From an uncultured Muribaculaceae bacterium (GTDB taxonomy: Bacteria; Bacteroidota; Bacteroidia; Bacteroidales; Muribaculaceae), in the NCBI GenBank assembly GCA_910584665.1, contig CAJUBL010000005.1, positions 866 through 64,865 on the forward strand: 64,000 nucleotides of DNA. Direction: 5' to 3'. This document shows positions 15,295-58,536 of the stretch, in pieces. Position 1 is the first letter of the stretch, and each line of letters begins with the position of its first letter. The notes beneath the pieces are model-generated. The model was not told the origin of the DNA, did no database searches, and was given only the letters and a program-made list of their open reading frames with translations. Made by a program: the position numbers and the translations under genes.

Positions 15295-16620
15295 TCAGTT
15301 TTCAGCCTGACGGGCATTCCACACAAGCAGAGTGAGAAGTACCGACACGAGAGCCGAGCCGATCCAGAACCAGTTTATCAATGTAAAGTCATAAACATCC
15401 ACGCCGTCGATTTCCTGCTTATAACCCTCGATGAGCAAACCGTTCATCACATCCTGCAGACCGGCGCCGAGATAACTGGCGATACCTACCACTCCAAGGG
15501 CCGCACCGGCCGCCTTCCGAGGCGCGATATCGACTGCCATGAGACCGCCGAGAAAGCATATCAGCACACCTATCCCCAGACCGAAGAGTACCATCGATAT
15601 GACATCAACGATGAAATTCGGTCCCGGAACAAGCAGAAACAGACTCAAGGCGAGAACATTCATAAGACCGAATACCAGAGCCGGAACATTACGGCTGCCT
15701 TTGAAAAGCCGGTCAGAAATGACTCCGGAGAATACTGTACCGACAATACCGCATATCGAACTTATAGAGATAATGAAACCGGCGTCAAGCGTCGAATACC
15801 CTTTCTGAGCCTCAAGGTAAAATACGCCCCAGCTGTTCACAGCGTAACGGCTTATGTACATGAACGCACTGGCAACGGCAAGTATCCATATTGCCGGATT
15901 GCGCAGAACTGCTTTCTGAGCACTATTATAACTTATGTCCTCCTTGTCCGATTTCAATACAGGCTGTGATTCACCGACCTGAAAACCACAGCTTTGCGGG
16001 GTATCGCGCATGAATGCCAGTACCACAGCGACTCCTGCGAGGCCTATCAATCCGGCTCCTGTAAAACCATAGCGCCAGCCGAACCGGCTTACCAGCAGAG
16101 CGATAGTTATGAACGTCAGGGCTTCGCCCAGATTGTGGCTGGCACTCCAGAAACCATACCATGTTCCACGGTCTTTCGACGAAAACCAGCGGTTCAGCGA
16201 TACGACTCCGGCCGGAGCTCCCATTGACTGGAACAACCCGTTCAGGCCCCACAGTATGGCAAACACGACAAATGATGTCGTGAACCCGAGTATCAGATTC
16301 ACAAGAGCTGTCAGGAGCAGGCCCGTCGCCATAAAACGTCTCACATTACAACGGTCGGCAAGGAACCCGTTCATAAGTTTGCCGACTGCATAGACAAAAA
16401 ACAGGCACGAGCCTATGATACCAAGCTCTGTCTCAGAGAATGTCCCGCTTTCAACTATAGGCTTGCGTATGATATTCATACTCAGACGACACACGTAGTA
16501 TAAAGCGTAACCACATGTAGCCGAGAGAAAAGTGACCGACCTCACGCGCCTGAAAAGCGTATTGTCACTGTCGGCCATGGTCTTCGGTGACGAAACTTTA
16601 TAAAAATCAAATATATTCAT
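15295..16620 (-). CDS. MFS transporter, organophosphate:phosphate antiporter-like (GlpT/UhpC family)
   Basis: 441 aa with 12 predicted TM. GKLMNGFLADRCNVRRFMATGLL resembles GlpT/UhpC loop motifs. Confidence 0.75.
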   Translation of the reverse strand: MNIFDFYKVSSPKTMADSDNTLFRRVRSVTFLSATCGYALYYVCRLSMNIIRKPIVESGTFSETELGIIGSCLFFVYAVGKLMNGFLADRCNVRRFMATGLLLTALVNLILGFTTSFVVFAILWGLNGLFQSMGAPAGVVSLNRWFSSKDRGTWYGFWSASHNLGEALTFITIALLVSRFGWRYGFTGAGLIGLAGVAVVLAFMRDTPQSCGFQVGESQPVLKSDKEDISYNSAQKAVLRNPAIWILAVASAFMYISRYAVNSWGVFYLEAQKGYSTLDAGFIISISSICGIVGTVFSGVISDRLFKGSRNVPALVFGLMNVLALSLFLLVPGPNFIVDVISMVLFGLGIGVLICFLGGLMAVDIAPRKAAGAALGVVGIASYLGAGLQDVMNGLLIEGYKQEIDGVDVYDFTLINWFWIGSALVSVLLTLLVWNARQAEN

Positions 16621-16704
16621 GATTACTGACGGTTTTATAAAACACTCCCGGCACGACCGGCATCACATGCCGCCAGACCGGGAGTCCACAAACCCAAAAA
16701 ATCT

Positions 16705-18597
16705 TTAATCGTGGAGATTTCTGGACCTGAGGTAATCGAGCAGCATAGCCGGACGGTCAGTCTGGATGATACGGCAACCCAGGCTATCGATAAGGTACCC
16801 CCATCCGTTGCTGACATTCCGCAGTGACGCATCGTCGTCATGGCCTCCCGCCATAGTGTTCCACAGCGTATTATACCAGATAAGCGACTTACCTTCAAGT
16901 TTATCCCTTATCTCCAGCGGCAACGCGTTGGAATCTTTCCTGAAAAGCAGCTCGAATGCCACAGGCTTCATCAGATCCATAAACTGCCCTACCGACTTCA
17001 TCGCATCATTTTTATCAAGATTGACTATAGGCATGTAAATCACATCGTCAGGATAGTGTCCGAACGCTTTCCTGACATCCGACGGAGATCTGGAACCTTT
17101 CATGACAATCTGGTGTGTGGTGCCTGTTTTTTCAAGCAGTGCCACCACCTCGTCAAAGTATCGGTCGGCCTTGTCAAGATTGAGCATGACTTTTCCCTTC
17201 GCCACAATAAGAGCCTCCTCGAGCGTAGGTACACGCTGTGATGTACGTATGCCGCAACCGTTGCGTAGTCTGAGAGTCTTTATATAACTCAGTGTTGTGT
17301 CAGCAACAGCCCCCTTGCCGGTAGTAGTGCGGTCAAGCGTCTCATCATGCATCAGTATGAGATGTCCGTCCCTGGTACGCTGTATATCAAGTTCGACGAT
17401 ATCCACACCCATATCTATGGCACTCCTCAGGCCCTCAAGCGAGTTCTCGGGATAGTTACGCCAGTCGGCCCGGTGAGAGGCAACGAGCACAGTCGAGTCT
17501 TCCATATCAGTCAGCCGTTCCCTTATTGCGGCAGTACGGTCTTTCAGAAATGGTTTGATCACCGGTATCAGCCGGGCCGTAATCAGTTCAAAACCGGCAT
17601 CGGTAGGATGCGTCCCGTCAACGGTCAGTTCATGGGATGAGCCGAGCGGCATTGCCGGGTCAATAAAGTAGAGATTATGATCACCGGCGGCAATCAGACG
17701 TTCCATTCCACGTGATGCAGCCTCACGCTTAAGTCGCTCGAAATTGCGCTTTTTAAGGTCAAAATTGCCTGTCTCACGCACCTCGGTCTGCAGGAACAGC
17801 AATGGGGTGTATGGTCTGTGTTCACGTATAAGCCTTACAAACGGCTCAAGCCGCAGGTCAATCTGTTCGGGCGACGGATTGGAAAACGCATCGATCACAT
17901 ACACATCGGCTTCGGTGTCGGCAATAAAATCCGCATAACAGCTGTCGAGTTTACACGATCCGCTGAACCCCAGATTGATAACTTCGGCATCAAGGGCACG
18001 CTGTAACCGCGCCGGATAAGCAAGACCCGGTCTCGAAGCCGATGCGCCGTGAGTGATACTGGAGCCGATAACGGCAACACGTTTACTCCATATGTAAGTA
18101 CCAGGAACACATATAGCCGTATCGGCGACACCTATCTCAAGAGTCTCTATTCTGTTCCATAGGGGCAGATAGAGCAGACACTCCTTAGGTCCCGGAGGCA
18201 TATTGTCGACAAGAACAGCCCTGTGGCTCAGCGAATCAGACGGAAGACCTACTCCGGCATGCACCCATGCCGAGTCAGTCCTGATGTAAAGATCCAGACC
18301 GCTCTGCATGAGTGGTGTAGTATTCTTACCGTCAGTACTGCCGGCGGTTGTCCACCGGGCCTTGATATATGGCGAGTCTGTGATAAACGAAACGGCCAGC
18401 CCTGTCGACAGTTCGCTGTATTTACCGATGGCTGAAGGCAGATCGCCATACCGGCTGAGATCAAGACGGGCATACGATGAGTCTATATCATAGGGTCTGT
18501 TGATTATATCTAGTTCCTGACAGTCGACATACCGTGAGGCCGCATGACCACACAGTGCGCCCAACAGCAGGATACATGTGCTGAAAATCTTTTGCAT
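16705..18597 (-). CDS. secreted SGNH-hydrolase / glycerophosphodiester phosphodiesterase (GDPD) fusion protein
   Basis: Signal peptide. The middle region has SGNH blocks (VIGSSITHG, GFSG, DGTHPTD). The C-terminus has the GDPD signature (SHRADWRNYPENSLEGL...VELDIQRTRDGHLILMHDETLDRTT). Confidence 0.8.
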   Translation of the reverse strand: MQKIFSTCILLLGALCGHAASRYVDCQELDIINRPYDIDSSYARLDLSRYGDLPSAIGKYSELSTGLAVSFITDSPYIKARWTTAGSTDGKNTTPLMQSGLDLYIRTDSAWVHAGVGLPSDSLSHRAVLVDNMPPGPKECLLYLPLWNRIETLEIGVADTAICVPGTYIWSKRVAVIGSSITHGASASRPGLAYPARLQRALDAEVINLGFSGSCKLDSCYADFIADTEADVYVIDAFSNPSPEQIDLRLEPFVRLIREHRPYTPLLFLQTEVRETGNFDLKKRNFERLKREAASRGMERLIAAGDHNLYFIDPAMPLGSSHELTVDGTHPTDAGFELITARLIPVIKPFLKDRTAAIRERLTDMEDSTVLVASHRADWRNYPENSLEGLRSAIDMGVDIVELDIQRTRDGHLILMHDETLDRTTTGKGAVADTTLSYIKTLRLRNGCGIRTSQRVPTLEEALIVAKGKVMLNLDKADRYFDEVVALLEKTGTTHQIVMKGSRSPSDVRKAFGHYPDDVIYMPIVNLDKNDAMKSVGQFMDLMKPVAFELLFRKDSNALPLEIRDKLEGKSLIWYNTLWNTMAGGHDDDASLRNVSNGWGYLIDSLGCRIIQTDRPAMLLDYLRSRNLHD

Positions 18598-20499
18598 TTA
18601 TCTGATTACAATTTTTTTACCGTTGGATATATAGATGCCGGGAGTGAGGTAGTCTCGGTCAACCTCTATACCCATGAGATTATATACAGGAGCATTCCGG
18701 TCTATGCCCTCTTCAGTGATTTCATCTATTCCGGTCACCACATTGCTCAGGCTGAACCGGGAAATGTTCCCGGCAAGCGATGACGGCAGTACGAGACAGG
18801 CTTTATTCGGATCAACTGATACCGAAGCTCCGTCAACACGATCAAACCCATATAGGCCGTCGGTATACATTACAAACTGATACGCCACCTTTCCGTCTGA
18901 TATGTTAAGTGTTGTGCCATCCTCAGTTCCCACGAGAAAGTTTGTCTCAGTAAAAGTTCCGGCGGCGTCAGGATCAATCTCGGGATACAGCGTGCCGTCT
19001 GCATTCTCACAGGCAAGCAATACCGGTGTGCCGGCCGGAAGTAATGTTCCGGGCCTGAACTGATCAAAGTCTCTGACAAGGTCCTGACCTATCACCCCCT
19101 TAATGGCCGTACCCTTAACTCCTTCCGGTAATGATACAGGTGTACTGCTGTAATAGGTAAGATATCCGGCACTCTCTATAGGAGCTACTGTAACGACTCC
19201 CTCAGGCACCTCTGTCACATCTTTGTAGCAATAGGCTCTGGTATCAGCCGCAAGGATGGACACCGGTTCCTTATCATCATTGTTTCCGGGCCATTTTCCA
19301 CCATGTTGATTGAAAATCACTGTCCTGACACCGGCCGCATCGTCGGCATGACCGAATGCGTCATTCAGTACCCAGTCCACTCCCTCTGGCAGACTCACCG
19401 TTTCAAGCCCGGCACAGTTGTAGAATGCACGCGCTCCGATTTTATTCACCGATGCCGGTATATCGATCGACTCCAGAGGAGTACCGTTGAAGAGATCCCA
19501 GTTGAGTGTGGTCATTTTGCTTTCGGGGCTGAATGTTATATTTTTAAGGCCCGATTTCATGAATGTGGCCACAAGACCCTCCACCCCCGGGAGCGGAGTG
19601 AGATCAATACTTTCAAGAGAAGTACATTCCTGAAAACAATAGTTCATTGACGAGTTTAACCCGGGATTCGGTGCAAAAGTCACACTGGCCAGTGATGTGC
19701 ATTTTCTGAAAGCCGAGTTCCCTATCTTTGTGATGGTCGAGGGAATTGAGACTGTCGTCACAACAGCATAACCGTCAAAAGCCTGCTGTGGTATCTCGGT
19801 GGTACCCTCTGGAAAAACTATTTCTGTGACATTACATTTTGCAAGAAAATTCTTAGGCAGCAACGTCATTTCCCGGGGAAGTGTGACCTTCACAGCCTCT
19901 GACCTGAGATTCTGCAGACAGTTGGCATTGAATGCCGTAACATTTGTCAGCCCCGAAAGATCGAGTTCTTTAAGACTGGTCTTTTCAAATGTATACTGTT
20001 TCATGTCGGCAAGCGGGCAATCACCTCTGAAAACAACTTTTTCAAGAGATGAGCAGCCGTTGAAGTTGCTGTTTGCCCCGAACGAGGCCAGACGGGACGG
20101 CAGCACGATTTCCCTGATCGATGAACAGCCGTTGAATGTCCACCCCCCCATAGCCAGGGGCTGGTCGCCATCCTCAAAGGTCACGGTCTCGAGACTCGTA
20201 TTGTTCTGGAACACAGAGTTACCCATCCTTGTGACCGAGGCCGGTATAAACACACTTTTAAGTATCGATGCCGTCTTGAATACATTCTGGTTTATTGTCG
20301 TGACCGGTTTACCGTCTATAGCCGGCTCTATGACCGCATCGACTATACCATCCTCAAAACCGGTGACTGTATAGGCCGATTCATCGCTGTTGAGCGTGTA
20401 CTGGATTTTGTTTACTGTTGTCTGGGCATCGGCATAAAACGAACCGCAGACTGTCGCCATGCTTCCGAGGCATAGCGCCAATAATTGTTTTTTTATCAT
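18598..20499 (-). CDS. BspA-type leucine-rich-repeat surface protein with T9SS-like C-terminal tail
   Basis: Start moved to the ATG at 20499 (MIKKQLLALCLG... signal peptide). Repeated ...IPASVTxIGxxAFxxCxSLxxV... LRR_5-type units. The C-terminus ...APVYNLMGIEVDRDYLTPGIYISNGKKIVIR resembles a Por secretion tail. Confidence 0.75.
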   Translation of the reverse strand: MIKKQLLALCLGSMATVCGSFYADAQTTVNKIQYTLNSDESAYTVTGFEDGIVDAVIEPAIDGKPVTTINQNVFKTASILKSVFIPASVTRMGNSVFQNNTSLETVTFEDGDQPLAMGGWTFNGCSSIREIVLPSRLASFGANSNFNGCSSLEKVVFRGDCPLADMKQYTFEKTSLKELDLSGLTNVTAFNANCLQNLRSEAVKVTLPREMTLLPKNFLAKCNVTEIVFPEGTTEIPQQAFDGYAVVTTVSIPSTITKIGNSAFRKCTSLASVTFAPNPGLNSSMNYCFQECTSLESIDLTPLPGVEGLVATFMKSGLKNITFSPESKMTTLNWDLFNGTPLESIDIPASVNKIGARAFYNCAGLETVSLPEGVDWVLNDAFGHADDAAGVRTVIFNQHGGKWPGNNDDKEPVSILAADTRAYCYKDVTEVPEGVVTVAPIESAGYLTYYSSTPVSLPEGVKGTAIKGVIGQDLVRDFDQFRPGTLLPAGTPVLLACENADGTLYPEIDPDAAGTFTETNFLVGTEDGTTLNISDGKVAYQFVMYTDGLYGFDRVDGASVSVDPNKACLVLPSSLAGNISRFSLSNVVTGIDEITEEGIDRNAPVYNLMGIEVDRDYLTPGIYISNGKKIVIR

Positions 20500-20519
20500 G
20501 TTTTTCAGATTTAAAGATG

Positions 20520-22622
20520 TTATTGTCTGATCATTACAGGTAGCATGCAATCAATATCACGGGATGAACGTCCTATTGATACTGTATATTCACCATCATT
20601 GACCTTCCATTGATGTGACACAGTATCCCGGTAACCTATCTTATCGACAGGTACCGAGAACCTGACATTCTCTCTCTTGCCGGCCTTAAGGTCAATCCGT
20701 CTGAACGCTTTGAGTTCCCTGACAGGACGTATGACCGTAGGATTGTTCTCCCCGATATACACCTGTATTGTCTCGGAGCCGTCCCTGTCCCCGGTATTAC
20801 TGACTGTGACCTCAATCTCGATTCCATCATCACCGACCTTGGCCTTAGCCTTGCCTATTTCAAAAGATGTATAGCTGAGTCCGTGGCCGAAGGGGAACAT
20901 CGGCTCTATGGACTTTGTGTCATACCAGCGGTAACCTACAAGTACCGACTCGTCATAGTTCACATCATAGAGCGTGATCAGTTTCTCGTTATAGGCACGG
21001 TAGGCCGTGTTGTAGAATTCAGCGCCGGCAGGCATCGTTTCTCTGGCAGGAGAGTCCCTGAAGTCGCGTTCGATCGTAACAGGCAGTTTTCCCGATGGAT
21101 TGACGCGCCCCGAGAGAATACCTGCTATGGCCTTCATTCCGGTCTGTCCCGGATACCAGCAATATAATATCGAGGCTGCTTTATCTGCCCACCCTGTCAT
21201 CCTTATGCCCGATCCCGAGAATACCAGTATCACGGTATTGGGATTATGCCTGACAATATTCTTCAGCCGCGTCTCCTCGTCACGCGGCAGGGCGAACGGC
21301 CTCTCGAACGATTCCATATCGACAGTTCCTGTAGTAGTGATTACTATATCGGCCTGCTGTAACTCACTTTCAGTCGGATTATTGACAAATTTCACCCGGT
21401 CTCCGAACTCATCTGACAGGGCGGCCCGCAGTGTCACGTAGTCATACCCCTTGACATCAGCCGACGATGCCGGATTGTCACCGGCACGCGGATCACTGTC
21501 TGTAAACGGACCCGTCACGAGAATATCCCGACAGCCGCCAAGCGGCAGCACCCCGCTGTTCTTAAGCAGTACGGTTCCCTTCTCAGCGACCTCGGTAGCC
21601 AGAGCACAATGATACTGAAAACGGTCCAGAAGTTCCGGGCTATACTTAGTTCTGCCATACAGGCCGTAGGCTATACCTGTGGCAATAGCCGGACGTATCA
21701 TCCTGTCGATATCAGCCTCTGAGATTTTGCCGTCGGCCACAAGACCGGCCAGCTCCGAGCTGAATCTGCTGTTACCGGGCATCACGGTATTAAGGCCAGA
21801 GTGAACGACCTTGAAAGTATCATAGACCGAGCTCCAGTCCGACATGACACTGCCGCGGAACCCCATCCCGTCACGCAGCAAGGTGTCGATGAGCCACTTG
21901 TTCTGACCGGTCCATTCACCGTTAAGACGATTATATGATGTCATGACAAAGGCCACACCGGCATCAACAGCATCCCTGAATGGAGGCAGATATATCTCAT
22001 GAAGAGCACGTTCGTCGACTACCGAGTTGGAACGCCGGCGGTAAAACTCGGTCTCGTTGCACAGGAAGTGCTTCACACACCCGGCTGTTCCGGTCGACTG
22101 CAGTCCGCGTATATAGGCTGCGGCCATTGCCCCCGTGAGCAGGGGATCCTCTCCGAGATACTCGAAGTTACGCCCACACTGCGAGTTCCTTGCGATATTG
22201 ACACCCGGTCCCAGAAGCACCTCGATGCCGCCGGCACGGCACTCCTCGCCCACGGCACGGCCGTAATCTCCGGCCAGTCCCTCGTCAAAGGTAGCGGCAA
22301 GCATTACAGGGCACGGGAAAGCAGTCGAACGCTCCATCTGCCTGACGAGGGTCGTATCCTTGAGATTATGGCGTATGTGTACACCCTGTGTGGCATCGGA
22401 GTGATACAGATAAGGAATCCCTTTATCGGGAACGCCATAGAAGTAGAATTCCGAGTACCCGCGTGTAAACCTGAGTTTCTCCTCGAGTGTGAGTTCCTTT
22501 ATCTTATCATCGGCCATTCGGTAGGCCTCATCCCATCCTATGACACGATCAGCCCGGGCGGGGATACTCCCGGCCAGAACCGGAAGTATACAGGAAGTGA
22601 TTATAACAGCGGTCTGTTTCAT
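20520..22622 (-). CDS. glycoside hydrolase family 3 (beta-glucosidase/BglX-like)
   Basis: KHFLCNETEFYRR...ALHEIYLPPF and the VMSDW nucleophile region, plus a C-terminal Fn3-like domain. The ATG at 22622 overlaps the upstream stop (ATGA) and gives a signal peptide. Confidence 0.9.
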   Translation of the reverse strand: MKQTAVIITSCILPVLAGSIPARADRVIGWDEAYRMADDKIKELTLEEKLRFTRGYSEFYFYGVPDKGIPYLYHSDATQGVHIRHNLKDTTLVRQMERSTAFPCPVMLAATFDEGLAGDYGRAVGEECRAGGIEVLLGPGVNIARNSQCGRNFEYLGEDPLLTGAMAAAYIRGLQSTGTAGCVKHFLCNETEFYRRRSNSVVDERALHEIYLPPFRDAVDAGVAFVMTSYNRLNGEWTGQNKWLIDTLLRDGMGFRGSVMSDWSSVYDTFKVVHSGLNTVMPGNSRFSSELAGLVADGKISEADIDRMIRPAIATGIAYGLYGRTKYSPELLDRFQYHCALATEVAEKGTVLLKNSGVLPLGGCRDILVTGPFTDSDPRAGDNPASSADVKGYDYVTLRAALSDEFGDRVKFVNNPTESELQQADIVITTTGTVDMESFERPFALPRDEETRLKNIVRHNPNTVILVFSGSGIRMTGWADKAASILYCWYPGQTGMKAIAGILSGRVNPSGKLPVTIERDFRDSPARETMPAGAEFYNTAYRAYNEKLITLYDVNYDESVLVGYRWYDTKSIEPMFPFGHGLSYTSFEIGKAKAKVGDDGIEIEVTVSNTGDRDGSETIQVYIGENNPTVIRPVRELKAFRRIDLKAGKRENVRFSVPVDKIGYRDTVSHQWKVNDGEYTVSIGRSSRDIDCMLPVMIRQ

Positions 22623-24796
22623 TTCGAGATACATATTTCATCGATGAACCAGCGGGTGAACTTTTTACCGGCATGCGAGGAGAACCTGACACGTGTCTCG
22701 GCCGTAGCGTTCTCTATCGTAAAGGTGTACTTTCTGAACGAGGTATAGTTCATCGACTGGATGGAGGCTGTTGTGGCACCGCTGATCGTTCCGCCGCCTA
22801 TTATCTCTATCGTAGCATTATCGGCATCGCCGTCTATGTCGGCCGCACTGTTGGATCCGGCACTGAATACTCCGGTATTCCTGTAGGCCATAGCCTTGAA
22901 CGAGAGTGTCAGCGTACCGTCTGCTCCGATCTTAGGCGTTGTGAGATTCCCGACACGGTTGGTATAGTCTTTCTGGCTTACCGACTGAGACTCGACATAA
23001 CCTATCTGGGCATACCCCGGGCGCTGTCTGACGTTCTGCCCCTCGAGACCGTTTATCAGATTGCTCTCCCAGGCCGATATGTCTTCGCCACAATAGTTGA
23101 GCATGGCGCTGAGGCGGTCACCGAGCCGGTAGTCGAGCCCCTGGTCGAGACCGTCAAACGGCTCAAAATATACAGCACCGGCAGGACGCACGGTCGATCT
23201 GGTCTGCAGGCGGTCAAGAACCGCACAGCTGTGAAGTACGATACGGCCGTATCCATCTGACAGCCCGCCACCCGATACCGAAACTTTATCGGCGGGCCGC
23301 AGTCTGATATAAAGAGTCGACTTACGCTCTATGGCAATCACGGGCCTGACATTGATGTTGTAATAGAGGTATCCTTTACCTCCGCCGAAAACCACATTCT
23401 TAGGTATTGATATCTTCTCCTCGGCCGTATGCCACGTCCTGCTGTCGGTCGAATACTGCAGTTCCCAGTTGGCAGGTGCGTTTTTCTGGCCTCCGAGTCC
23501 GAACGAGAACCTGAAGCCCGACGACAGATCCTCCCCTACGGGGAATGTGAACAGCATATAGTTGGATCCTCCGTCGATCCATGACGAGAGCTGCAGATTG
23601 TGGTGACCGCTGTTGTCGTTCCAGTAATAGAAAGTCTTGCTCTTGGCATTGAGGTTTACATTGAACCTGGCTCCGGTACCGTCTTTTGACTCCAGATATG
23701 TCTTGTTGGCATCAGACGTGTTCTGTACAAAGTCGACATACCGGCCCGTACTGTTCGTTCCCTCTGTCATAAGCGAGAATACATAGGGCATCATCACGCC
23801 GCCGTCAAGACGTCCCCCGTCAAGAGATATATCGGCTTCGGTACACGGCGAGAGTGTAGCCACACCATCGGTATAGGTAATTATGCCGTTTACCCGGCCG
23901 CTCCCGGCGGGAACCGGACGATCGGCCATAGACGATGAAGCCGCTATACCGAGCCTTACGGTCTGCCCGTTCCCGTTGACAAGTGTCACACCCTCTCCGA
24001 GAGATTCCTTTGACAGGTCATTGGCCTGAATCTGTCCCTCGATACTTACATACATTGACTCGTATAAATCGGGCTCGAGATAGTCAGGTGTCACAGTCAC
24101 CGGAGTCGGATCTATACGGGTGCTGCCTGTCTTGTTTATCATGGAGTCGTCGGCAGGAATGATTGTCTTCACACCCTCGTTTTCATCGATCACGGCACCG
24201 GTTAGACCGACCTCAAGTTCTTCTCCGGCACCGGCATAGACGGTCTGTACAGTCCTGACGGCTATGCCGCAATCGGGCCCGGTTCCGTCCTGCAGTGCTA
24301 TCAGGCCGTGAATGTAATTGCCACAGCGTTGATCCGAGACCACGACACCACGCATGACCACACCGTCTCCGGGTATTGTACTGCCTGCGGGCATCCCCCG
24401 CAGATCGCTTATAGATACAGCACCGTCGCCGCGGGCTCCCCGCTGTTTCAGGACCAGCGGTGTTACCGTCGTTCCCGACATGTTGCTGACGTTCAGCGTG
24501 AACTGGCGTGAATCACTCCCCGTGTTAGGATCCACCGACAGGGTTATTACGCCCAGCCCCACCTTGTTGCCGCCCGACACACGGGCCCATGAGCCGGCTT
24601 CGGCCGGCATCTCCACTTTCCAGTCACAGTTGGCATCGACATCGATGCTGAATGTCGCAGCGAGAGCCGGTGCCATGATAGTATCGCTGGAAAGCGATAT
24701 GTAGGCGCGTGGAAGAGCCACATCATCCTTGCACGATGCACACAGCGACATCATGACAATAGCGGCTGAATATATAATATATTGGAAATTTTTCAT
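22619..24796 (-). CDS. surface lipoprotein: BACON + DUF5689-like + C-terminal choice-of-anchor/MAM-like domain
   Basis: Lipobox (SLCASC). BACON-like segment (FSIDVDANCDWKVEMP...ITLSVDPNTGSDSRQFTLNVS). ISDLR...VMRGVVVSDQRCGNY...ALQDGTG is DUF5689-like by recollection. Confidence 0.6.
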   Translation of the reverse strand: MKNFQYIIYSAAIVMMSLCASCKDDVALPRAYISLSSDTIMAPALAATFSIDVDANCDWKVEMPAEAGSWARVSGGNKVGLGVITLSVDPNTGSDSRQFTLNVSNMSGTTVTPLVLKQRGARGDGAVSISDLRGMPAGSTIPGDGVVMRGVVVSDQRCGNYIHGLIALQDGTGPDCGIAVRTVQTVYAGAGEELEVGLTGAVIDENEGVKTIIPADDSMINKTGSTRIDPTPVTVTPDYLEPDLYESMYVSIEGQIQANDLSKESLGEGVTLVNGNGQTVRLGIAASSSMADRPVPAGSGRVNGIITYTDGVATLSPCTEADISLDGGRLDGGVMMPYVFSLMTEGTNSTGRYVDFVQNTSDANKTYLESKDGTGARFNVNLNAKSKTFYYWNDNSGHHNLQLSSWIDGGSNYMLFTFPVGEDLSSGFRFSFGLGGQKNAPANWELQYSTDSRTWHTAEEKISIPKNVVFGGGKGYLYYNINVRPVIAIERKSTLYIRLRPADKVSVSGGGLSDGYGRIVLHSCAVLDRLQTRSTVRPAGAVYFEPFDGLDQGLDYRLGDRLSAMLNYCGEDISAWESNLINGLEGQNVRQRPGYAQIGYVESQSVSQKDYTNRVGNLTTPKIGADGTLTLSFKAMAYRNTGVFSAGSNSAADIDGDADNATIEIIGGGTISGATTASIQSMNYTSFRKYTFTIENATAETRVRFSSHAGKKFTRWFIDEICISK

Positions 24797-24801
24797 AATT
24801 A

Positions 24802-25632
24802 TTATTTTGACAGATCGACAATTACAGGCAGATGGTCCGACACGTCACTGAGTTTTATCTCTTCAAATACCGGGACTATCGTACGCAGTACGGTGTAGGG
24901 GGCATTGTTGCCCTTGTAGGCGAGAATGAAATCGATACGCGTGCTTTTGCTCGGGAATGTGGGTGTAGATGCGCTTATTACAGTCCAGTGACTCAATGCA
25001 TTGGAAGGCAGAACCGTCGTATTCATATCTCCGGCTATGAATACCGGCTTGGCCGATGTACCGTAGTTGTCGTCAACATATTCGTTGATGATATCAAACG
25101 ACCACGTACGGTTATCCTCGCTCGATACACACAGATGGGTGCAGATATACACGTAGTCCTCGAATTCGGCGACAAGGAACCGGCGCGTCTCCACTCCGGG
25201 CAGCTCTCTGGAATCGGTCTTTACAGGCTTTTCGCGACACAGCATTCCGATACCGTATTCTCCGCCGGCATAGTTTATGGTTCTGGCAAAGACAGGATGC
25301 ATACCGGTACGTGACGACAGTTCTCCGAGCTGATCGGTTGGGAACAGGCTCGTGTTGCGGTCGAGTTCCTGCAAGGCTACCACATCGGCATCAAGGAGAG
25401 AGATTGCCTTGGCCGTATTGTTATAATTGGCATTGTTGGTGCCGCCGGGAGAACAGCGGTGGGTGTTGTATGTCGCAAGTCGGTAGGAATCGGGCAGGCG
25501 TGAAGGATCTTCCATCTTAGTCCCGGCATCGAAGTCAAAGTCAGAGTTGTCGCCATCCGGATCGTTGCACGACACGGCGGCTATGGCTGTCGCAAGGACC
25601 AGCGGCAATAATGATATATGTTTCAGTTTCAT
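24802..25632 (-). CDS. endonuclease/exonuclease/phosphatase (EEP) family lipoprotein
   Basis: Lipobox (AAVSC). EEP motifs LATYN, VVALQELD, IAGDMN, SDHLPV. Confidence 0.85.
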   Translation of the reverse strand: MKLKHISLLPLVLATAIAAVSCNDPDGDNSDFDFDAGTKMEDPSRLPDSYRLATYNTHRCSPGGTNNANYNNTAKAISLLDADVVALQELDRNTSLFPTDQLGELSSRTGMHPVFARTINYAGGEYGIGMLCREKPVKTDSRELPGVETRRFLVAEFEDYVYICTHLCVSSEDNRTWSFDIINEYVDDNYGTSAKPVFIAGDMNTTVLPSNALSHWTVISASTPTFPSKSTRIDFILAYKGNNAPYTVLRTIVPVFEEIKLSDVSDHLPVIVDLSK

Positions 25633-25648
25633 GATTTCTTAAAGGGGA

Positions 25649-27400: not shown

Positions 27401-27405
27401 GGTTG

Positions 27406-30400
27406 TTAAAGTGTAAGATTAAGTCCTACCGAGAATGTCTTGCTCCAGGGATAGACGTTTGACAGTTTGTTGGAATTGGCCGAGGCCTGCTCGGGATCAA
27501 GGAATCTGCTCCTGAGTGCCGTCCATGTGAACAGGTTCTCGCCTGTCACATATACCCTGAGCCTCTGTATGCAGGCTTTAGCCGTAAGACTTGCCGGAAG
27601 AGTATAGCCAAGGGTAAGATTTTTCAGACGGCAGTAGGCAAGGTTCTGGAGATAACGGTCGTTGGTATAATACACGGTTCCGTTGGTAGTGTTGAGAGAC
27701 GAATAGGCACGGGCTCGCGGGAAATAACCGCCGGTATTGGACTCGCTCCACACGTCGCTCATGAAGTTACGTGGTATGAATGTCGAGTATGGACGGCTGT
27801 ACGGCCCCCAGAAACGCAGGTTGTCATTGCCCGGATACCAGTCCATATGTCCTATGCCCTGAATGAATACCGCCAGATCGATTCCCTTCCAGCTGGCCGA
27901 CAGATTGGCACTATAACTGTATCGGGGGGTCGAGTTGCCTATGATCACACGGTCACCCGGATCCTCGAGCGTACCTTTGCCGCCGTTTACATAACCGTTA
28001 TTGTCAAGATCGAGATACCTGAGGTCTCCGGCTCTGACACCTGCACCGTAGGATCCTGTAGCGTTATAGCATCCCGGAGCCACCGTACGCATATCCACAC
28101 GGCTTGCGTAAGCGGCGGCCTCTTCATCGGTACCGAACAGGCCGTCGACCCGGTATCCCCATATCTCACCCTCGTGACGGCCTACATACGGGTCACTGAT
28201 AAGCCCCGATGGATTATCACACTTGGTGTACTCCGAGGTATAATCGCTGAACGATGCGCCTATGCTGTAGCTGAAAGGTGAATTCAATAGCTGGAACGAG
28301 TCGTTCCAGGTCAGCGTCAGTTCATAACCGGTTGTGCGCAGGTCGTTGGCGTTGACCTGAGGCTCGGTGGCTCCGTACAGCGACGGCAGTGACTTGCCGC
28401 GGCCCAGGATTCCCCTGACATCGCGGGTATAGACCTCTCCGGTAAAAGACAGACGGTTGTTGAGCACACCTATGTCGATACCCAGATTTCTGGTCACGAC
28501 CTTCTCCCACGTCTGGTTGCCCGAGACCGGATCAGAGACAGTGGCATGCTGTCCCAACGTTGCGCCGTCAAACGAGTATCCGCTCATGTTGCCCGACGTG
28601 TCGATGGTCTGTATGAAGTCATAGTAGCCTATCTGCTGGTTGCCGAGCGAACCATATGAGGCTCTGATCTTGACATTGCTGAACGTCCGCCTCAGGTCGT
28701 TGAAGAATGTCTCCTCGCTTATACGGTAACCGGCCGAGAACGAAGGGAAGAAACCGTACCGGTTTCCGCGAGGAAACCGCGAGGATCCGTCATAACGGCC
28801 GTTCATCTCAAAAAGATATTTGCCGCGGTAATTGTAGGCCGCACGGTAAAACAGTCCCATGATGGCATACTCATTGCGACCGCCCGTGATAGAGAAATTG
28901 GTCATACCTTTTGCCAGATTGAAATCAGACAGATCTTCACTCAGCAGTCCGGTGTTCTTAGCCCCGAGATCCTTATAATATTTGGACTCGTAGTTGTAAC
29001 CGGCTATAACCTGAAGATTATGGGAATCACGCCATGTGTTCTGATAAGTGGCATAGATATCGGCCACGTAATAGTTCTGGTCCCATACTGTCTCCTTTAA
29101 TGAGTTCGGGAAACGGCCCTCAGGCTCGGTGAGTGTCTGGCCCGGATATTGGGAATACTGAACGTTGACACTGCGGTAATCATTATGGAGATTGCCGTAG
29201 GTGTAGCTGAAATCGGCCTTTACATCAAACTGCCTGGAGAAGCGATAGGCGACCTCGAACAGTGTCGAGAACTCTTTTACCCTCTTGTGCCCTCCGCTTT
29301 TACCTTTCTGCAGCATGGCGTTATAGCCGTCCATAAGATAGTGAGCCGACGAGTTGGTGACCGAAGTGTGCGACACGGCAGTCCCGTCGGGATTGACCGG
29401 CACCATCGATGCAAGGGCATGCAGTGTCGGTTTCCTGAAGTTGTCGCTCTCCGATTCAAATCCGGCATAATTGTATCGGGAACTGAAAAACCTGGTATTG
29501 TTGGATATCGTAAGATTAGGGGTGACGTCGGCCGACAGTTTTATGCGGAAATTGTATGACTTGAACTTGTCGGGGATGATACGGTTGATGCCCTTCTGCT
29601 CGTTATACCGTCCCGAGAGCATGTAGGTAAATGATTTCAGTCCGCCACGTATGTTTATATTATGGTCCCACGTAGGACGTGAATCGTCATATAGATAGTT
29701 GTACCAGTCGAAATTGGCCAGATAGAGATATTCCATCCTGCCGTTGCGCATACGGGTAGTGACCCACGGCCGCGCCGGGTTCTCGACAGCATCATTGCGG
29801 CGGTCCCACAATGCCTGGTAGTCGGCTTCGGTATAAGAGGTATAGGGCGTGTTCTGAGACGACATCATGAAGAAATCAGCGATCTTGGCCGAGTAATATC
29901 CACGTGTCTCGAAGTCGGTCGAAGTCGTGGGTTTCGACACCGAGAAACTGCCGCTATAGCTTATCTCCGGTTTCTGATCGGTCTTTCCGCTCCTGGTAGT
30001 GATAAGAATGACACCGAAAGCTCCGCGCGCACCATATATGGCGGCCGATGAGGCGTCTTTCAGTACCGATATTGTCTCAACGTCGTTGGAATTGATTCGG
30101 TCAAGCGACGACTCCACACCGTCGACTAACACCAGGGGGCTGCCGCCGTTGGGCGATGTGGTTCCACGTATATTGAGAGTCGCTCCGGCTCCAGGCTGAC
30201 CCGACGATACCTTCACATTAAGGTTGGGGATCATTCCCTGCAGGGCGCGTCCGAGATTGTCGATGGGACGGTCCCTGATGGCATCCTGTGACAGCGTGGC
30301 TACAGCTCCGGTAAGATTGGCTTTCTTCTGAGTTCCGTATCCCACGACAACCACCTCGTTGAGCAGCTCGCTGTTTTCCTCGAGCCTGTAGTCATACTCA

Positions 30401-30960
30401 TCTGATTTCCCGACCTTGAAGACCACTGGTTTCAGTCCGACATAGGTTATGGAAACCGTGGCGCCCTCAGGAACATTGTCAAGCGTATACCGTCCGTTGA
30501 TATCAGTCGAGACACCTGTCGACGACCCCTTGACTATGACCGATGCTCCTGCCACAGGCTCGTCAAACTCGTCGGTAACTGTACCGCTTATGGTCTTGGT
30601 AGCCTCTTTTTCCTGCTTTTGCTGATTACTGACATCATTACGCCCGGTAATGACAATCGACTTGGGCGAAATGATCTTGTAAGTGAGACCCGTGTCGTCA
30701 AAAATGCCCGACAATACCGCGTCGACAGGTTTTCCGCTGCACGACAGAGTAATAGCCGGGAAATCCTTCGGTAAATCGCCTTTGAACGAGAAACTGCACC
30801 CGGCCTGTCGTTCAATCTCCTTTAGCACCTGCTCTATGGGAGCATCTTTCACGTCGAGAGTTATGGTTGTCCCGGTTACGGCCGCCACTGCTGTGACCGC
30901 CGATACCAGGACGATCATCGCCATGAAAAAGCGCTTGCATCTGTACTGATGATGATTCAT
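27406..30960 (-). CDS. SusC/RagA TonB-dependent outer membrane transporter with N-terminal STN signalling domain
   Basis: 1184 aa. STN-like ITLDVKDAPIEQVLKEIERQAGCSFSF, a CarboxypepD_reg domain (ISGTVTDEFDEPVAGASVIVKG), VVVGYGTQKKANLTGAV, and a beta-barrel ending ...GLNLTL. Confidence 0.95.
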   Translation of the reverse strand: MNHHQYRCKRFFMAMIVLVSAVTAVAAVTGTTITLDVKDAPIEQVLKEIERQAGCSFSFKGDLPKDFPAITLSCSGKPVDAVLSGIFDDTGLTYKIISPKSIVITGRNDVSNQQKQEKEATKTISGTVTDEFDEPVAGASVIVKGSSTGVSTDINGRYTLDNVPEGATVSITYVGLKPVVFKVGKSDEYDYRLEENSELLNEVVVVGYGTQKKANLTGAVATLSQDAIRDRPIDNLGRALQGMIPNLNVKVSSGQPGAGATLNIRGTTSPNGGSPLVLVDGVESSLDRINSNDVETISVLKDASSAAIYGARGAFGVILITTRSGKTDQKPEISYSGSFSVSKPTTSTDFETRGYYSAKIADFFMMSSQNTPYTSYTEADYQALWDRRNDAVENPARPWVTTRMRNGRMEYLYLANFDWYNYLYDDSRPTWDHNINIRGGLKSFTYMLSGRYNEQKGINRIIPDKFKSYNFRIKLSADVTPNLTISNNTRFFSSRYNYAGFESESDNFRKPTLHALASMVPVNPDGTAVSHTSVTNSSAHYLMDGYNAMLQKGKSGGHKRVKEFSTLFEVAYRFSRQFDVKADFSYTYGNLHNDYRSVNVQYSQYPGQTLTEPEGRFPNSLKETVWDQNYYVADIYATYQNTWRDSHNLQVIAGYNYESKYYKDLGAKNTGLLSEDLSDFNLAKGMTNFSITGGRNEYAIMGLFYRAAYNYRGKYLFEMNGRYDGSSRFPRGNRYGFFPSFSAGYRISEETFFNDLRRTFSNVKIRASYGSLGNQQIGYYDFIQTIDTSGNMSGYSFDGATLGQHATVSDPVSGNQTWEKVVTRNLGIDIGVLNNRLSFTGEVYTRDVRGILGRGKSLPSLYGATEPQVNANDLRTTGYELTLTWNDSFQLLNSPFSYSIGASFSDYTSEYTKCDNPSGLISDPYVGRHEGEIWGYRVDGLFGTDEEAAAYASRVDMRTVAPGCYNATGSYGAGVRAGDLRYLDLDNNGYVNGGKGTLEDPGDRVIIGNSTPRYSYSANLSASWKGIDLAVFIQGIGHMDWYPGNDNLRFWGPYSRPYSTFIPRNFMSDVWSESNTGGYFPRARAYSSLNTTNGTVYYTNDRYLQNLAYCRLKNLTLGYTLPASLTAKACIQRLRVYVTGENLFTWTALRSRFLDPEQASANSNKLSNVYPWSKTFSVGLNLTL

Positions 30961-31122
30961 GTGGTAATGATAAGGTTAATGATAATTTGATTCTATGCAT
31001 AGTAAGACGATGGTCCGGTCCTGTTGTCCCGATAAAAAAATATGTTATACAACATAAAAACGACATCCATGGCTGCCGGTCAGAGCAACCATGGATGTCA
31101 TTATCTTAAAGCGGGAGGACTG

Positions 31123-32046
31123 CTAATAAACGGCTCTTATTATCGTCAGAGCCTCGTCAAGGTTGTCAGACGGTAGCATTCCTGTAAAATTAAGATCCAT
31201 ACTGTTGGTAATCGATGTGTCGAGGCTTATCCCGTAGGTCTGCTCGATACGCTCTATGACATAACCGGGAGGGGCCTGGTGAAAGAACATCTCGCCTGTA
31301 CGCCACGATGACGACGATGATGTTCCGGACTCGCTTATTGTCACATCTCCGTTAATCCTGTCATATAGTAATGTCTGGCCCGGATTGATCCTGACCGCCC
31401 CGTCACGTCCGTCGATACAGAGCGAGACCTCGCCCGAGTCGAGCGACAGCTGGGCATAATTGCTGTCTCCCCGTGACAGCAGATTGAAGCTGGTCCCATA
31501 GACCTCGACCGTCATTCCGTCCGTCTCGATCCTGAAAGGATGTTCCGGATCACGTGTGACATCAAAATATGCCTCACCGTCAAATTTCACCACCCGCGAT
31601 TTTTCGCTGAATCCTCTGGCCGACAGGATAGAATTACTGTTGACCGTTATGCTCGTACCGTCTGGCAATGAGAGTGTCGAACACTCTCCGGCTCCGGTCG
31701 ACATGGCATAATAATCGTTTGAGCTACGGCCTATATTCCACTGTATTACAGCCATCAGCGCTATAGCAAGCAACGGTACGGCAATGACCGACGCTATCGT
31801 TGCGCGACGATAACGCCGATACAACCGCAGTGAAGGTGAGTGTACACCTGTGGCGGCATCGATATGTTCCTTCATGCGCGACAGCATGGCATTGTCAACC
31901 CGGCCGAATTCACTGCGGGTATCAGCCGTCTCAGGAAAACAGTCTGACAGTTCATCGTACGATGCCGTCTCAAAGAACTCCCTAAGCCTTGCCAGTTCAT
32001 CGGGAGTGAGTCTGCCTTTTCTATGTTTGTCAATCAGGTCTTTCAT
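31123..32046 (-). CDS. FecR-family anti-sigma factor
   Basis: 307 aa. N-terminal cytoplasmic region, single TM (ASVIAVPLLAIALMAVI), periplasmic FecR domain. Overlaps the sigma gene stop. Confidence 0.85.
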   Translation of the reverse strand: MKDLIDKHRKGRLTPDELARLREFFETASYDELSDCFPETADTRSEFGRVDNAMLSRMKEHIDAATGVHSPSLRLYRRYRRATIASVIAVPLLAIALMAVIQWNIGRSSNDYYAMSTGAGECSTLSLPDGTSITVNSNSILSARGFSEKSRVVKFDGEAYFDVTRDPEHPFRIETDGMTVEVYGTSFNLLSRGDSNYAQLSLDSGEVSLCIDGRDGAVRINPGQTLLYDRINGDVTISESGTSSSSSWRTGEMFFHQAPPGYVIERIEQTYGISLDTSITNSMDLNFTGMLPSDNLDEALTIIRAVY

Positions 32047-32618
32047 TCAAACAGATATATAAGTGCTAATGAAATGATTTTTATACCATGAAGTTTTTCA
32101 AGCCGGTCCCTGAGCTGTTTCAGTCCGAGCGACAATACATTACGCACGGTGCTCATGCTTATTCCCAAAAGAGCCGATATCTCGGCATGTGACAGTCCGT
32201 CAAGCTTCGACATCCTTACAACCCGGCCCTGGGTCGAAGGTAAGCGTGAGATCTCGCCCATGACGACATTCTCGAATTCGGCATATTCCAACGATCCGGT
32301 ATCAGTACTATAACACTGAAAATTAGTTATATTGACATAATCCTCATATAATGGCGATCTGATACGCGACCTGTAGTAATCGATAATACGGTTACGGAGT
32401 GATGTGAAAAGAAGCGGCTTCACTGTAGAATCGTTTTTTATCGACTCACGGTTGTTCCATAAGGATATGAATACATCCTCGACCAGTTCCTCTGCATCCT
32501 CACGGTTGACGACATAGGTAAGAGCATAGCCCGACAGTCGGCGCGCATACATATAGTATATGGCGTCAAAAGACCGTCGGTCTCCTCGGGCCAGTCCTGA
32601 TATCAATCGTTTTTCCAT
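32043..32618 (-). CDS. ECF-type RNA polymerase sigma-70 factor
   Basis: 191 aa. Region 2 (DAEELVEDVFISLW) and region 4 HTH (LSHAEISALLGISMSTVRNVLSLG). Confidence 0.9.
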   Translation of the reverse strand: MEKRLISGLARGDRRSFDAIYYMYARRLSGYALTYVVNREDAEELVEDVFISLWNNRESIKNDSTVKPLLFTSLRNRIIDYYRSRIRSPLYEDYVNITNFQCYSTDTGSLEYAEFENVVMGEISRLPSTQGRVVRMSKLDGLSHAEISALLGISMSTVRNVLSLGLKQLRDRLEKLHGIKIISLALIYLFE

Positions 32619-46380: not shown

Positions 46381-46405
46381 CACATAACAAATATAATTCC
46401 GGCTT

Positions 46406-46443
46406 AGAATCAGGAGTTCCGCTTAAGCGGAACTCCTGATTCT
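46406..46443. terminator. perfect palindromic hairpin between convergent dcp and the island operon
   Basis: agaatcaggagttccgc ttaa gcggaactcctgattct: a 17-bp perfect stem with a 4-nt loop, followed by ttc on the plus strand. Confidence 0.7.
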
Positions 46444-46685
46444 TTCATAACAGCACCGACATCCACATAAAAATCACGCATACGCAATTCATTGTAAGTC
46501 CTGTTTTATTGGATAGGCCATCATTTTAGCTTTATGTCACTTGTGACACTTTTCTTCAATCGGCTGTTCAATATGTCGCAAATCTCTTTTCCTGTCATTG
46601 TCAGATTGTGAACGGGGATATTTTCTATTGCTCCGGTTTCTTTGAAATTAAATGTCCTCAATCTCTGCTTGAAATTCAAAATCGG

Positions 46686-47811: not shown

Positions 47812-47837
47812 ATATTCCAGCCAACCTCCTGGATTGT

Positions 47838-48674: not shown

Positions 48675-48677
48675 ACT

Positions 48678-49319: not shown

Positions 49320-49402
49320 TGTTTTAGCGGTTTAATAATCAAAAGGATAACATATACCCATAATGCGACAGTCACTCCCCACGCCCCAATAGTCCATTTT
49401 CG

Positions 49403-50484: not shown

Positions 50485-50497
50485 ATTTAACTCTCTT

Positions 50498-58477: not shown

Positions 58478-58536
58478 TACGATATCATCTTAAAAATCTC
58501 AAGTTCCAGCAGAAAGCTGAAACTTGAAAAAACGTG

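Follow-up and report, generated by a model that had tools for sequence, protein, structure and literature searches.

Gene content and organization of the locus

The 64,000-nucleotide window analysed here (positions 866 to 64,865 of contig CAJUBL010000005.1, from an uncultured Muribaculaceae bacterium) carries a ten-gene cluster that is encoded on the minus strand and spans exactly positions 15295-32618 (Table 1). An earlier annotation made from the letters of the window alone (the sequence-only reading) had placed a polysaccharide utilization locus (PUL) at these coordinates, and had proposed that it serves a phosphodiester-linked, glycerophosphate-containing polymer such as teichoic acid. The borders were borne out: both flanks are occupied by housekeeping genes, i.e. 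purT (+) at 14013-15206 and a thioredoxin-like gene at 32915-34780, and 15295-32618 are therefore the true limits of the locus. Domains were assigned with Pfam thresholds and NCBIfam (TIGR/NF) cut-offs, and every gene named in the sequence-only reading clears the Pfam thresholds, both in the core (an extracytoplasmic function (ECF) sigma factor, FecR, STN-SusC and SusD) and in the cargo (the EEP lipoprotein, the GH3 enzyme, the SGNH-GDPD fusion and a major facilitator superfamily (MFS) transporter). The description of the cargo as four items was incomplete, since two of the six cargo genes, encoding a 725-aa DUF5689 protein and a 650-aa leucine-rich-repeat (LRR) protein and amounting to 4.1 kb, had been missed.

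The organization is that of an ECF-regulated PUL. The susC and susD genes are adjacent, 5 bp apart, a carbohydrate-active enzyme is co-localised with them in the form of a GH3 protein, the sole glycosidase of the locus, and the ECF sigma factor, FecR and the STN domain of SusC are all found above their Pfam thresholds. In SusC the STN domain is followed by CarboxypepD_reg, Plug and barrel domains; the SusD lipoprotein displays CEDE at its lipid cysteine, and the fecR and sigma genes overlap by 4 bp. The possession of its own sigma/anti-sigma pair implies that the locus would be induced by its substrate.

The genes are tightly packed, with intergenic distances from -31 to +16 bp, the exceptions being the 162-bp gap between fecR and susC and an 84-bp gap before the MFS gene. 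A pattern scan of the former revealed a terminator-like hairpin, and folding of the whole gap gave -46.7 kcal/mol (z = -5.5), a value equalled by none of 200 shuffled sequences. This is the sole site with a strong terminator-like hairpin among the ten genes, and it suggests that the sigma/anti-sigma genes form one transcription unit and the genes from susC to the MFS gene a second. As the cargo is packed tightly behind SusC and the strong hairpin lies only between fecR and susC, all cargo genes should be co-induced by one ligand. A second hairpin, found directly after the MFS stop codon by pattern scan and in itself weak evidence, probably marks the end of the operon. An ECF-type promoter, GGGAC-N16-CGTC, was perceived by eye between the first hairpin and susC, but it was absent from the fecR-susC gaps of 26 of 26 related loci and was dropped; a sigma-70 promoter scan is uninformative for Bacteroidota.

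The identical operon was found on at least 23 independent contigs, from metagenome-assembled genomes as well as metagenomes, and the nearest relatives of the organism, an uncultured Bacteroidales, are labelled Muribaculaceae or Porphyromonadaceae. Together with the occurrence of relatives in 39 loci (see below), this shows that the grouping of the genes exceeds chance.

Table 1. Features of the locus, the evidence for each, and the number of related loci, among 24 with adequate flanks, that hold a counterpart
Feature	Position	Strand	Evidence	Related loci
ECF-type sigma-70 factor, 191 aa	32043-32618	-	Sigma70_r2 + r4_2; TIGR02985 (Bacteroides ECF subfamily) 129 bits, above cut-off	23/24
FecR-type anti-sigma factor, 307 aa	31123-32046	-	PF04773 FecR, E = 2.7e-16	24/24
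Terminator-like hairpin, 19-bp stem then U-run	31059-31102	-	pattern scan of fecR-susC gap	
SusC/RagA-type TonB-dependent transporter with N-terminal STN, 1184 aa	27406-30960	-	TIGR04056 823 bits, cut-off 368	24/24
SusD-family lipoprotein, 583 aa	25649-27400	-	PF07980, E = 1.2e-40	24/24
EEP lipoprotein, 276 aa	24802-25632	-	PF03372; lipoprotein signal	17/24 (direct homology)
BACON-DUF5689 surface lipoprotein, 725 aa	22619-24796	-	DUF5689 (PF18942) 52-55 bits, cut-off 28.6	
GH3 exo-glycosidase, beta-glucosidase type, 704 aa	20520-22634	-	three GH3 Pfam domains (N-terminal, C-terminal, Fn3-like)	18/24 (orthologue)
BspA-type LRR protein with signal peptide, 650 aa from TTG	18598-20550	-	PF13306 LRR_5, E = 2.9e-51	3/24
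GxDLY/SGNH-GDPD-DUF4996 fusion, 630 aa	16705-18597	-	Pfam domains	SGNH 4/24; GDPD 1/24
MFS, OPA (GlpT/UhpC/PgtP) family, inner membrane, 441 aa	15295-16620	-	TIGR00881 best	1/24
Terminator-like hairpin with T-run, directly after MFS stop codon	15260-15274	-	pattern scan	

Predicted surface proteins and periplasmic enzymes

The EEP lipoprotein is predicted to be a surface-exposed phosphoesterase, and its catalytic set (N56, E89, H166, D202, N204, D234, D266 and H267) is invariant in 17 homologues. The AlphaFold2 model (pLDDT 85.9) displays a generic EEP fold, with TM scores of 0.60-0.66 and with Bacteroides structural-genomics EEPs, Nocturnin and TDP2 as the best matches. The mannosyl-6-phosphatase BT3783 (PDB 4c1r) from the Bacteroides thetaiotaomicron yeast-mannan PUL provides a case of this fold in a locus for a phosphorylated glycan (TM about 0.6). 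However, it ranks 39 in the fold search, has no sequence-level match to the window protein, is a monoesterase and belongs to a mannosidase-rich PUL. At the sequence level, the profile of the EEP protein matched APE1/ExoIII best among PDB entries (E about 2e-6) and NCBIfam returned xth, while the matches to bacterial sphingomyelinases were far weaker (E = 0.015-0.15); a phmmer search of the PDB found nothing. Judged from sequence and model, the protein may thus be a nuclease, another diesterase or a monoesterase. The two phosphodiesterase-type activities counted in the sequence-only reading are predictions, and the EEP protein could equally well be a nuclease or a phosphomonoesterase. Directly after the lipid cysteine (protein residues 22-35), a near-invariant acidic GDNSDFDF stretch was observed in all 17 aligned homologues. 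It is conserved beyond what a simple acidic export signal would need, and may constitute a docking element.

The neighbouring 725-aa lipoprotein consists of a BACON domain, DUF5689, an F5/8-type-C-like beta-sandwich and a C-terminal beta-sandwich. The BACON domain scores 24.1 bits, just below its cut-off, and is precomputed in many homologues. The CKDD at the lipid cysteine fits the C(x)(D/E)(D/E) export signal (PMC12478041). The AlphaFold2 model is all-beta (pLDDT 79.7), and the fold search, for which the whole model was used, returned only generic multi-sandwich matches with TM at most 0.18: carbohydrate-binding or discoidin-type sandwiches, B. thetaiotaomicron SGBP-B and the BACON domain of 3zmr. 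Neither domain nor fold searches gave a recognisable catalytic domain, and the protein is predicted to be a substrate-binding protein of the DdbD type. Full-length relatives are few: in a set of 1.84 billion representatives they fall into about 25 clusters at 50% identity. The C-terminal half (residues about 330-725; window positions 22619-23810) is the most conserved part, with invariant QRPGYAQIG, FEPFD, HHN and HSC motifs, and other proteins, 700-1025 aa long, have it attached to a different N-terminal half. A module that merely binds is not usually conserved to this degree, and a catalytic or metal-binding role is conceivable. With an E value of 4e-10, which falls well short of the cut-off, the C-terminal domain weakly resembles NF052644, a family of surface endonucleases from Riemerella anatipestifer.

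The BspA-type LRR protein is possibly a further surface binding protein. The public gene call gives it 633 aa rather than the 650 aa listed in Table 1, and among related loci its gene occurs only in the closest ones (L007, L008, L009 and L023). The last 30 residues resemble, by eye, the C-terminal domain of type IX secretion substrates; neither Pfam nor NCBIfam supported this and such a domain is not claimed.

The GH3 enzyme has a signal peptide that suggests a periplasmic location. Its nearest PDB entries, 7ms2, 5wab and 2x40, are all beta-glucosidases (E about 1e-100), and the SDW motif with the nucleophile D266, the KHF motif and the acid/base E441 are present. The similarity to the NagZ type amounts to E = 1e-8 only, no NCBIfam equivalog cut-off is reached, and the known beta-1,2-glucosidases Lin1840 and B. 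thetaiotaomicron 5xxl are matched at E about 1e-50. The protein is thus, on sequence grounds, classified as a broad BglB-type beta-glucosidase and not as NagZ-like.

The fusion protein, predicted to be periplasmic, combines GxDLY and an SGNH esterase (residues about 22-354) with GDPD and DUF4996 (about 359-629). Both halves have close counterparts among Bacteroides structural-genomics proteins, 4lhs for the SGNH half (E = 1e-81) and 3i10 for the GDPD half (E = 9e-89), the latter a B. thetaiotaomicron GDPD structure with about 65% identity. The SGNH motifs were located by inspection (GSSI with S179/S180, N240 and D327xxH330; PF14606 E = 6e-45). The GDPD half scores 88.8 bits against PF03009 with the HR, E, ExD and HD motifs intact, and the motif sequence AHRADWRNYPENS...VELDIQ...LMHDETLDRTT aligns with 3i10, 2pz0 and 5t91; the NCBIfam GlpQ/UgpQ equivalog cut-off is not reached (57.5 bits against 264). 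Similarly, the MFS protein is closest to TIGR00881 (268 bits, cut-off 407.75), followed by UhpC (243 bits) and GlpT TIGR00712 (222.8 bits, cut-off 632.55). Residues 17-433 align with residues 17-433 of GlpT 1pw4 (E = 3e-51), and inspection of the alignment showed that the residues corresponding to the substrate-binding Arg45, Lys80, His165 and Arg269 of GlpT are retained.

Two recurrent modules in related loci

Searching with a profile of the 725-aa protein yielded 39 loci, which belong to Muribaculaceae, Alistipes, Dysgonomonas and uncultured Bacteroidales; gene content was counted over the 24 loci with adequate flanks (Table 1). In addition to the direct homologues, divergent EEP proteins were confirmed by Pfam directly after the DUF5689 gene in the three loci scanned (L029, L032 and L044), and similar-sized genes fill the same position in other loci lacking direct EEP homology. 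Judged from these positions and matches, EEP is nearly universal in loci with this core. The stable core is thus SusCD, EEP and the DUF5689 protein, usually together with GH3. The accessory genes of the sister loci vary, and comprise a second EEP, a calcineurin-like phosphoesterase (Metallophos), GH2, SGNH, TIG-domain proteins, or none of these; up to three DUF5689 paralogues are present in some loci, and some Alistipes loci lack any glycosidase. Among the loci retrieved, the combination of this core with GDPD and MFS was found elsewhere only in Dysgonomonas sp. 511 (L010), in which SGNH, GDPD and MFS are separate genes; Alistipes timonensis, likewise a cultured carrier, holds the core with GH3. 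Given that GDPD and MFS occur in only 1 of 24 loci, it is an accessory cassette that points to glycerophosphate. Five contigs bearing SusC, SusD and DUF5689 (L033, L035, L041, L042 and L043) are assigned to genomes of Acutalibacteraceae, Butyricicoccaceae, Clostridia or Gastranaerophilales, and very probably represent mis-binned Bacteroidales sequence.

The accessory part has a distribution of its own. In L048 a GH3 enzyme (62% identity), an SGNH-GDPD fusion (55/65%) and the MFS transporter (72%) are encoded behind a SusC with a mere 28% identity to that of the window locus, and EEP and DUF5689 genes are absent. As judged from these sequence relationships, GH3, SGNH/GDPD and MFS form a recurrent cassette that behaves like a functional unit in its own right. 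More widely, GDPD-DUF4996 modules, 46-65% identical to the window GDPD half, occur in many loci with an ECF sigma factor, an STN-SusC and SusD and with the same MFS (67-72% identity). They stand by themselves, in tandem, or joined to SGNH (in both domain orders), to SASA, to a region with a faint PI-PLC-X match or, weakly, to GH5. These GDPD-rich PULs share ECF sigma, FecR, STN-SusC, SusD, GDPD-DUF4996 and MFS with the window locus. They differ in lacking EEP and DUF5689, in an unrelated SusC (28-29% identity), in a shorter SusD (460-461 aa in L046 and L048) and in holding up to six GDPD genes. The presence in such loci of lectin-type domains (Laminin_G_3, Ricin B) or of the SASA fusion favours glycan-linked glycerophosphate over small lipid head groups. 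The wide family of GDPD-rich ECF-type PULs is uncharacterised, and is not described in the literature searched.

Individual members illustrate the diversity of this family. In L046/L047, from the Bacteroides stercorirosoris/oleiciplenus group, positions of about 1-21842 hold ECF sigma, FecR, STN-SusC, SusD and six GDPD genes, four of them with DUF4996, next to a Laminin_G_3 protein, several hypothetical proteins and an OPA-type MFS (67% identical). Hypothetical proteins encoded after SusD (L046 8803-10038 and L048 6759-7823) resemble ComEC/Rec2 (in the C-terminal part of that model) and UlaG weakly and below threshold, presumably through metallo-beta-lactamase-fold regions, and could be the surface phosphodiesterases of those loci. 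The GDPD loci L050-L052 contain a SASA-esterase-GDPD fusion; a tandem GDPD-DUF4996 protein with a faint PI-PLC-X match, whose neighbours are a sulfatase/phosphodiesterase-like protein and one with a Ricin-B lectin domain; and a reverse-order GDPD-SGNH fusion, next to an alkaline phosphatase gene that is inserted between the sigma and fecR genes.

Proposed substrate and its alternatives

From the gene set we infer a substrate-induced PUL that targets an anionic polymer with phosphodiester linkages, in which glycerol phosphate is accompanied by beta-glycosyl and ester groups. Teichoic acid, lipoteichoic acid or a related wall glycopolymer of dead gut Gram-positive bacteria appears to fit the whole operon best, with a probability of roughly 45%. 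A glycosylated, esterified glycerol-phosphate polymer gives every protein of the locus a job. A biochemical precedent is the teichoic-acid turnover of Bacillus subtilis, in which GlpQ is an exolytic, stereospecific teichoicase that is blocked by glycosyl or D-alanyl substituents and PhoD is the endo-teichoicase (PMC7086022). Because GlpQ-type GDPDs are blocked in this manner, an esterase fused to the GDPD domain and a neighbouring glycosidase make mechanistic sense. The window GDPD has the same catalytic His/Arg/Glu/Asp motifs as B. subtilis GlpQ (5t91, E about 1e-13), and a GlpT-like antiporter, as known from E. coli, together with removal of the decorations before exo-cleavage would likewise match teichoic-acid salvage. 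Conversely, the window GDPD is a member of the Bacteroidales GDPD-DUF4996 subfamily with an SGNH esterase attached, EEP takes the place of PhoD as the candidate endo-enzyme, and the B. subtilis system recycles the cell's own polymer whereas the window locus would act through SusCD import by a Gram-negative consumer.

The proposed pathway would start at the cell surface, where the BACON-DUF5689 lipoprotein and SusD, possibly with the LRR protein, would hold the polymer and the EEP lipoprotein would cut internal phosphoester bonds. The resulting oligomers would be imported by SusC, whose STN domain would signal via FecR to the ECF sigma factor and thereby increase transcription of all genes from susC to that of the MFS. 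Once in the periplasm, the oligomers would lose ester substituents, e.g. D-alanyl groups, to the SGNH half and beta-glycosyl substituents or anchor sugars to GH3. The GDPD half could then free glycerol phosphate stepwise, and the GlpT-like antiporter would bring it into the cytoplasm in exchange for phosphate. The polyol-phosphate chain chemically resembles the backbone of nucleic acids, and by analogy the DUF5689 protein may bind it. The strong acidity of the DUF5689 domain (net charge -8 to -19, pI about 4.2-4.8, 13 homologues) was weighed as an argument against polyanion binding, but it is non-discriminating as most of 16 distant proteins with DUF5689-like segments are acidic too.

What the sequences show directly is which genes are present and in what order, that catalytic and binding residues are intact, which signal types are predicted, and that both modules recur in other genomes. 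Teichoic acid as the polymer, the activities and the regulation are conclusions drawn from this, and several points weigh against teichoic acid. Many teichoic acids carry alpha-glucosyl or N-acetylglucosamine substituents, whereas the GH3 enzyme groups with beta-glucosidases. None of the cargo genes has a characterised homologue that ties the locus to teichoic acid, the MFS protein is below every equivalog cut-off including that of GlpT, and neither the fold nor the profile of EEP tells whether it is a diesterase, a nuclease or a sugar phosphatase. Moreover, phosphoglycerol- and succinyl-substituted beta-glucans would use the same periplasmic enzymes and fit these about equally well, but do not fit the core. 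The proposal made in the sequence-only reading is thus upheld by the residues of GDPD, SGNH, GH3 and MFS and by the recurrence of the cassette, and is weakened by the occurrence of GDPD and MFS in only 1 of the 24 core-related loci and by a conserved cargo of EEP and DUF5689, often with GH3, that carries the gene signature of the ddb loci. The sole functional precedents for this pair are in DNA uptake and degradation (PMC12478041, PMC8851478, PMC8459023).

These precedents underlie the foremost alternative, i.e. that the substrate is nucleic acid (DNA or RNA) and the locus a SusCD-format relative of the ddb loci, in which DUF5689 binds DNA, EEP acts as a surface DNase and SusCD imports oligonucleotides. 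The remaining genes (GH3, SGNH-GDPD and MFS) would then be an unrelated co-transcribed cassette, or the locus would scavenge phosphodiesters generally. In B. thetaiotaomicron ddbABCDEF, the DUF5689 protein DdbD is the proposed DNA-binding partner of the TonB-dependent transporter (PMC12478041), and genetic evidence shows that DNA depletion and natural transformation depend on DdbD and its counterpart in R. anatipestifer (PMC12478041, PMC8459023). The same B. thetaiotaomicron region (BT3560-3563) encodes the EEP-labelled lipoprotein nucleases BT3562 and BT3563, the latter an extracellular DNase (PMC8851478). The likeness to the window locus extends to a DUF5689 surface protein continued by further beta-sandwich domains, an adjacent EEP-family lipoprotein, acidic lipoprotein export-type signals and, in some ddb variants, a BACON-domain protein (PMC12478041, PMC8851478, PMC8459023), so that the outer-membrane half of the locus resembles ddb recast in a SusCD format. 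DUF5689 scoring above its Pfam threshold, the APE1/ExoIII and xth matches of EEP, the weak resemblance of the 725-aa C-terminal domain to the characterised R. anatipestifer surface endonuclease family (PMC12398890), the position of EEP and DUF5689 as the most conserved cargo, and the Alistipes loci devoid of glycosidases all speak for this alternative. The sequence-only reading had listed nucleic acid last among its alternatives and had overlooked the DUF5689 gene.

Still, nucleic acid is rather unlikely as the substrate, and the two systems differ in several respects. The window locus adds a true SusD beside the DUF5689 protein as well as an ECF sigma factor, an anti-sigma factor and an STN domain, and its GH3, SGNH-GDPD and organophosphate antiporter are without counterpart in ddb. 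The DUF5689 gene lies near the transporter gene, as in ddb, but is separated from susC by the susD and EEP genes. The SusD partner suggests a transporter of a different class from DdbC, which is defined by >50% identity and >75% coverage to DdbC references (WP_008762511.1 and others; PMC12478041). Whereas ddb has the periplasmic nuclease DdbB, the window locus encodes none, and a comparison of the ten proteins with Pfam and NCBIfam gave no nuclease-type family except EEP and no nucleotidase or nucleoside-transporter family. GH3, present in 18 of 24 loci, and the GH2 enzymes and esterases of others have no role on nucleic acid, and GH3 enzymes of the same orthologue group accompany GDPD and MFS also in the absence of EEP and DUF5689. 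The placement of eight genes after the hairpin, under one ligand-sensing STN-SusC, argues against a passenger cassette. Finally, the sister loci differ in their accessory genes, as one would anticipate if the polymers of a class vary in their decorations, but not if the substrate were nucleic acid; the known structural diversity of teichoic acids would account for such differences.

It is improbable that the substrate is a glycan outside the teichoic acids that bears phosphoglycerol. Candidates are the osmoregulated periplasmic or cyclic beta-glucans of Proteobacteria, bifidobacterial lipoglycans and the glycerol-phosphate-modified rhamnopolysaccharides of streptococci. Periplasmic glucans are beta-1,2/1,6-glucans with phosphoglycerol, phosphoethanolamine and succinyl groups. 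On such a substrate GH3 would serve to break down the glucan and SGNH to take off succinyl or acetyl groups, leaving the phospho-substituents to GDPD and EEP, a scheme that would use all four enzyme classes and the organophosphate antiporter. It agrees also with an exo-beta-glucosidase as the sole glycosidase, and with the fusion of GDPD-DUF4996 elsewhere to the carbohydrate-esterase-like SASA and, weakly, to GH5. However, the GH3 enzyme is far nearer to the BglB type (about 1e-100) than to the beta-1,2-glucosidases Lin1840 and 5xxl (about 1e-50), no endo-glucanase is encoded in the locus, and the conserved DUF5689 protein is left unexplained.

In E. coli, GlpT of the glpTQ system takes up glycerol 3-phosphate, and SGNH, GDPD and GlpT form the classical phospholipid-salvage set. 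The presence of this set, the weak matches of EEP to sphingomyelinases (E = 0.015-0.15) and the proposal that Flavobacterium PusCD imports lipid head groups (PMC8115612) would agree with the head groups of host, dietary or bile phospholipids and glycolipids as the substrate (with SGNH as lysophospholipase, GDPD releasing glycerol 3-phosphate from glycerophosphocholine, EEP acting like a sphingomyelinase or phospholipase C, and GH3 like a glucosylceramidase), but this is very improbable: glycan-binding-type domains (BACON, discoidin-like, Laminin_G_3, Ricin B) are borne by the surface proteins of this locus and of related GDPD loci, small head groups would require neither a surface endo-enzyme nor extra binding proteins, and the sphingomyelinase similarity is far below that to APE1.

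The PUS loci of plant-associated Flavobacterium combine the SusCD-like complex PusCD with phosphodiesterases or phosphomonoesterases and an inner-membrane organophosphate transporter, and resemble the window locus in holding such genes instead of mainly carbohydrate-active enzymes (PMC8115612). They are, however, induced by phosphate depletion and defined by proteomics (PMC8115612), while the window locus has its own ECF sigma/anti-sigma pair, GH3 and DUF5689. Each part of the locus has been described before (PUL architecture, signalling through ECF factors, DUF5689 paired with EEP as in ddb, and GDPD paired with GlpT); their combination is undescribed in the literature searched. The searches found no teichoic-acid PUL, no GDPD-containing PUL, nothing on DUF4996 and no dedicated teichoic-acid catabolic system in Bacteroidota, in agreement with the statement in the sequence-only reading that no PUL of this type has been characterised. 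It is a tentative and rather doubtful proposal that the window locus represents the first recognised locus family by which gut Bacteroidales feed on teichoic-acid-type polymers of neighbouring Gram-positive bacteria. DdbD-like DUF5689 proteins and EEP lipoproteins, hitherto known only from DNA uptake, would have been re-used to bind and cut a different polyol-phosphate polymer and would be coupled, through SusCD, to the esterase-GDPD fusion and the glycerol-phosphate antiporter; the GDPD-rich PULs would form an unexplored class of loci for envelope remains.

Teichoic acids make up a large share of Gram-positive walls and, in the gut, are a major reservoir of organic phosphate and carbon. If a teichoic-acid-type polymer is the substrate, the window locus and the GDPD-rich loci would provide a genetic handle on the recycling of bacterial cell remains, with a bearing on cross-feeding between Gram-positive and Gram-negative gut bacteria, and the removal of immunostimulatory lipoteichoic acid could be studied via these loci. 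If it is nucleic acid, the known DNA-utilisation systems would gain a format with SusD and ECF regulation. In both cases, the DUF5689/EEP pair occurs in a far more PUL-like setting than described so far.

Three further features were observed elsewhere in the window. A thiamine pyrophosphate riboswitch at 60946-61060 (+) (Rfam RF00059, 61 bits, above the gathering score) is located directly upstream of the open reading frame at 61050-63290 (+), which encodes a TonB-dependent receptor (Plug and barrel), an arrangement that suggests thiamine-controlled outer-membrane uptake. The region 46000-52000 has a GC content of 0.39-0.44, compared with about 0.50-0.54 elsewhere, and contains several minus-strand open reading frames of 200-310 aa; a scan of four of them against Pfam gave one DUF4304 as the sole match, and the region may have been horizontally acquired. 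A single tRNA-Arg(CCT) gene is found at 58536-58608 (-).

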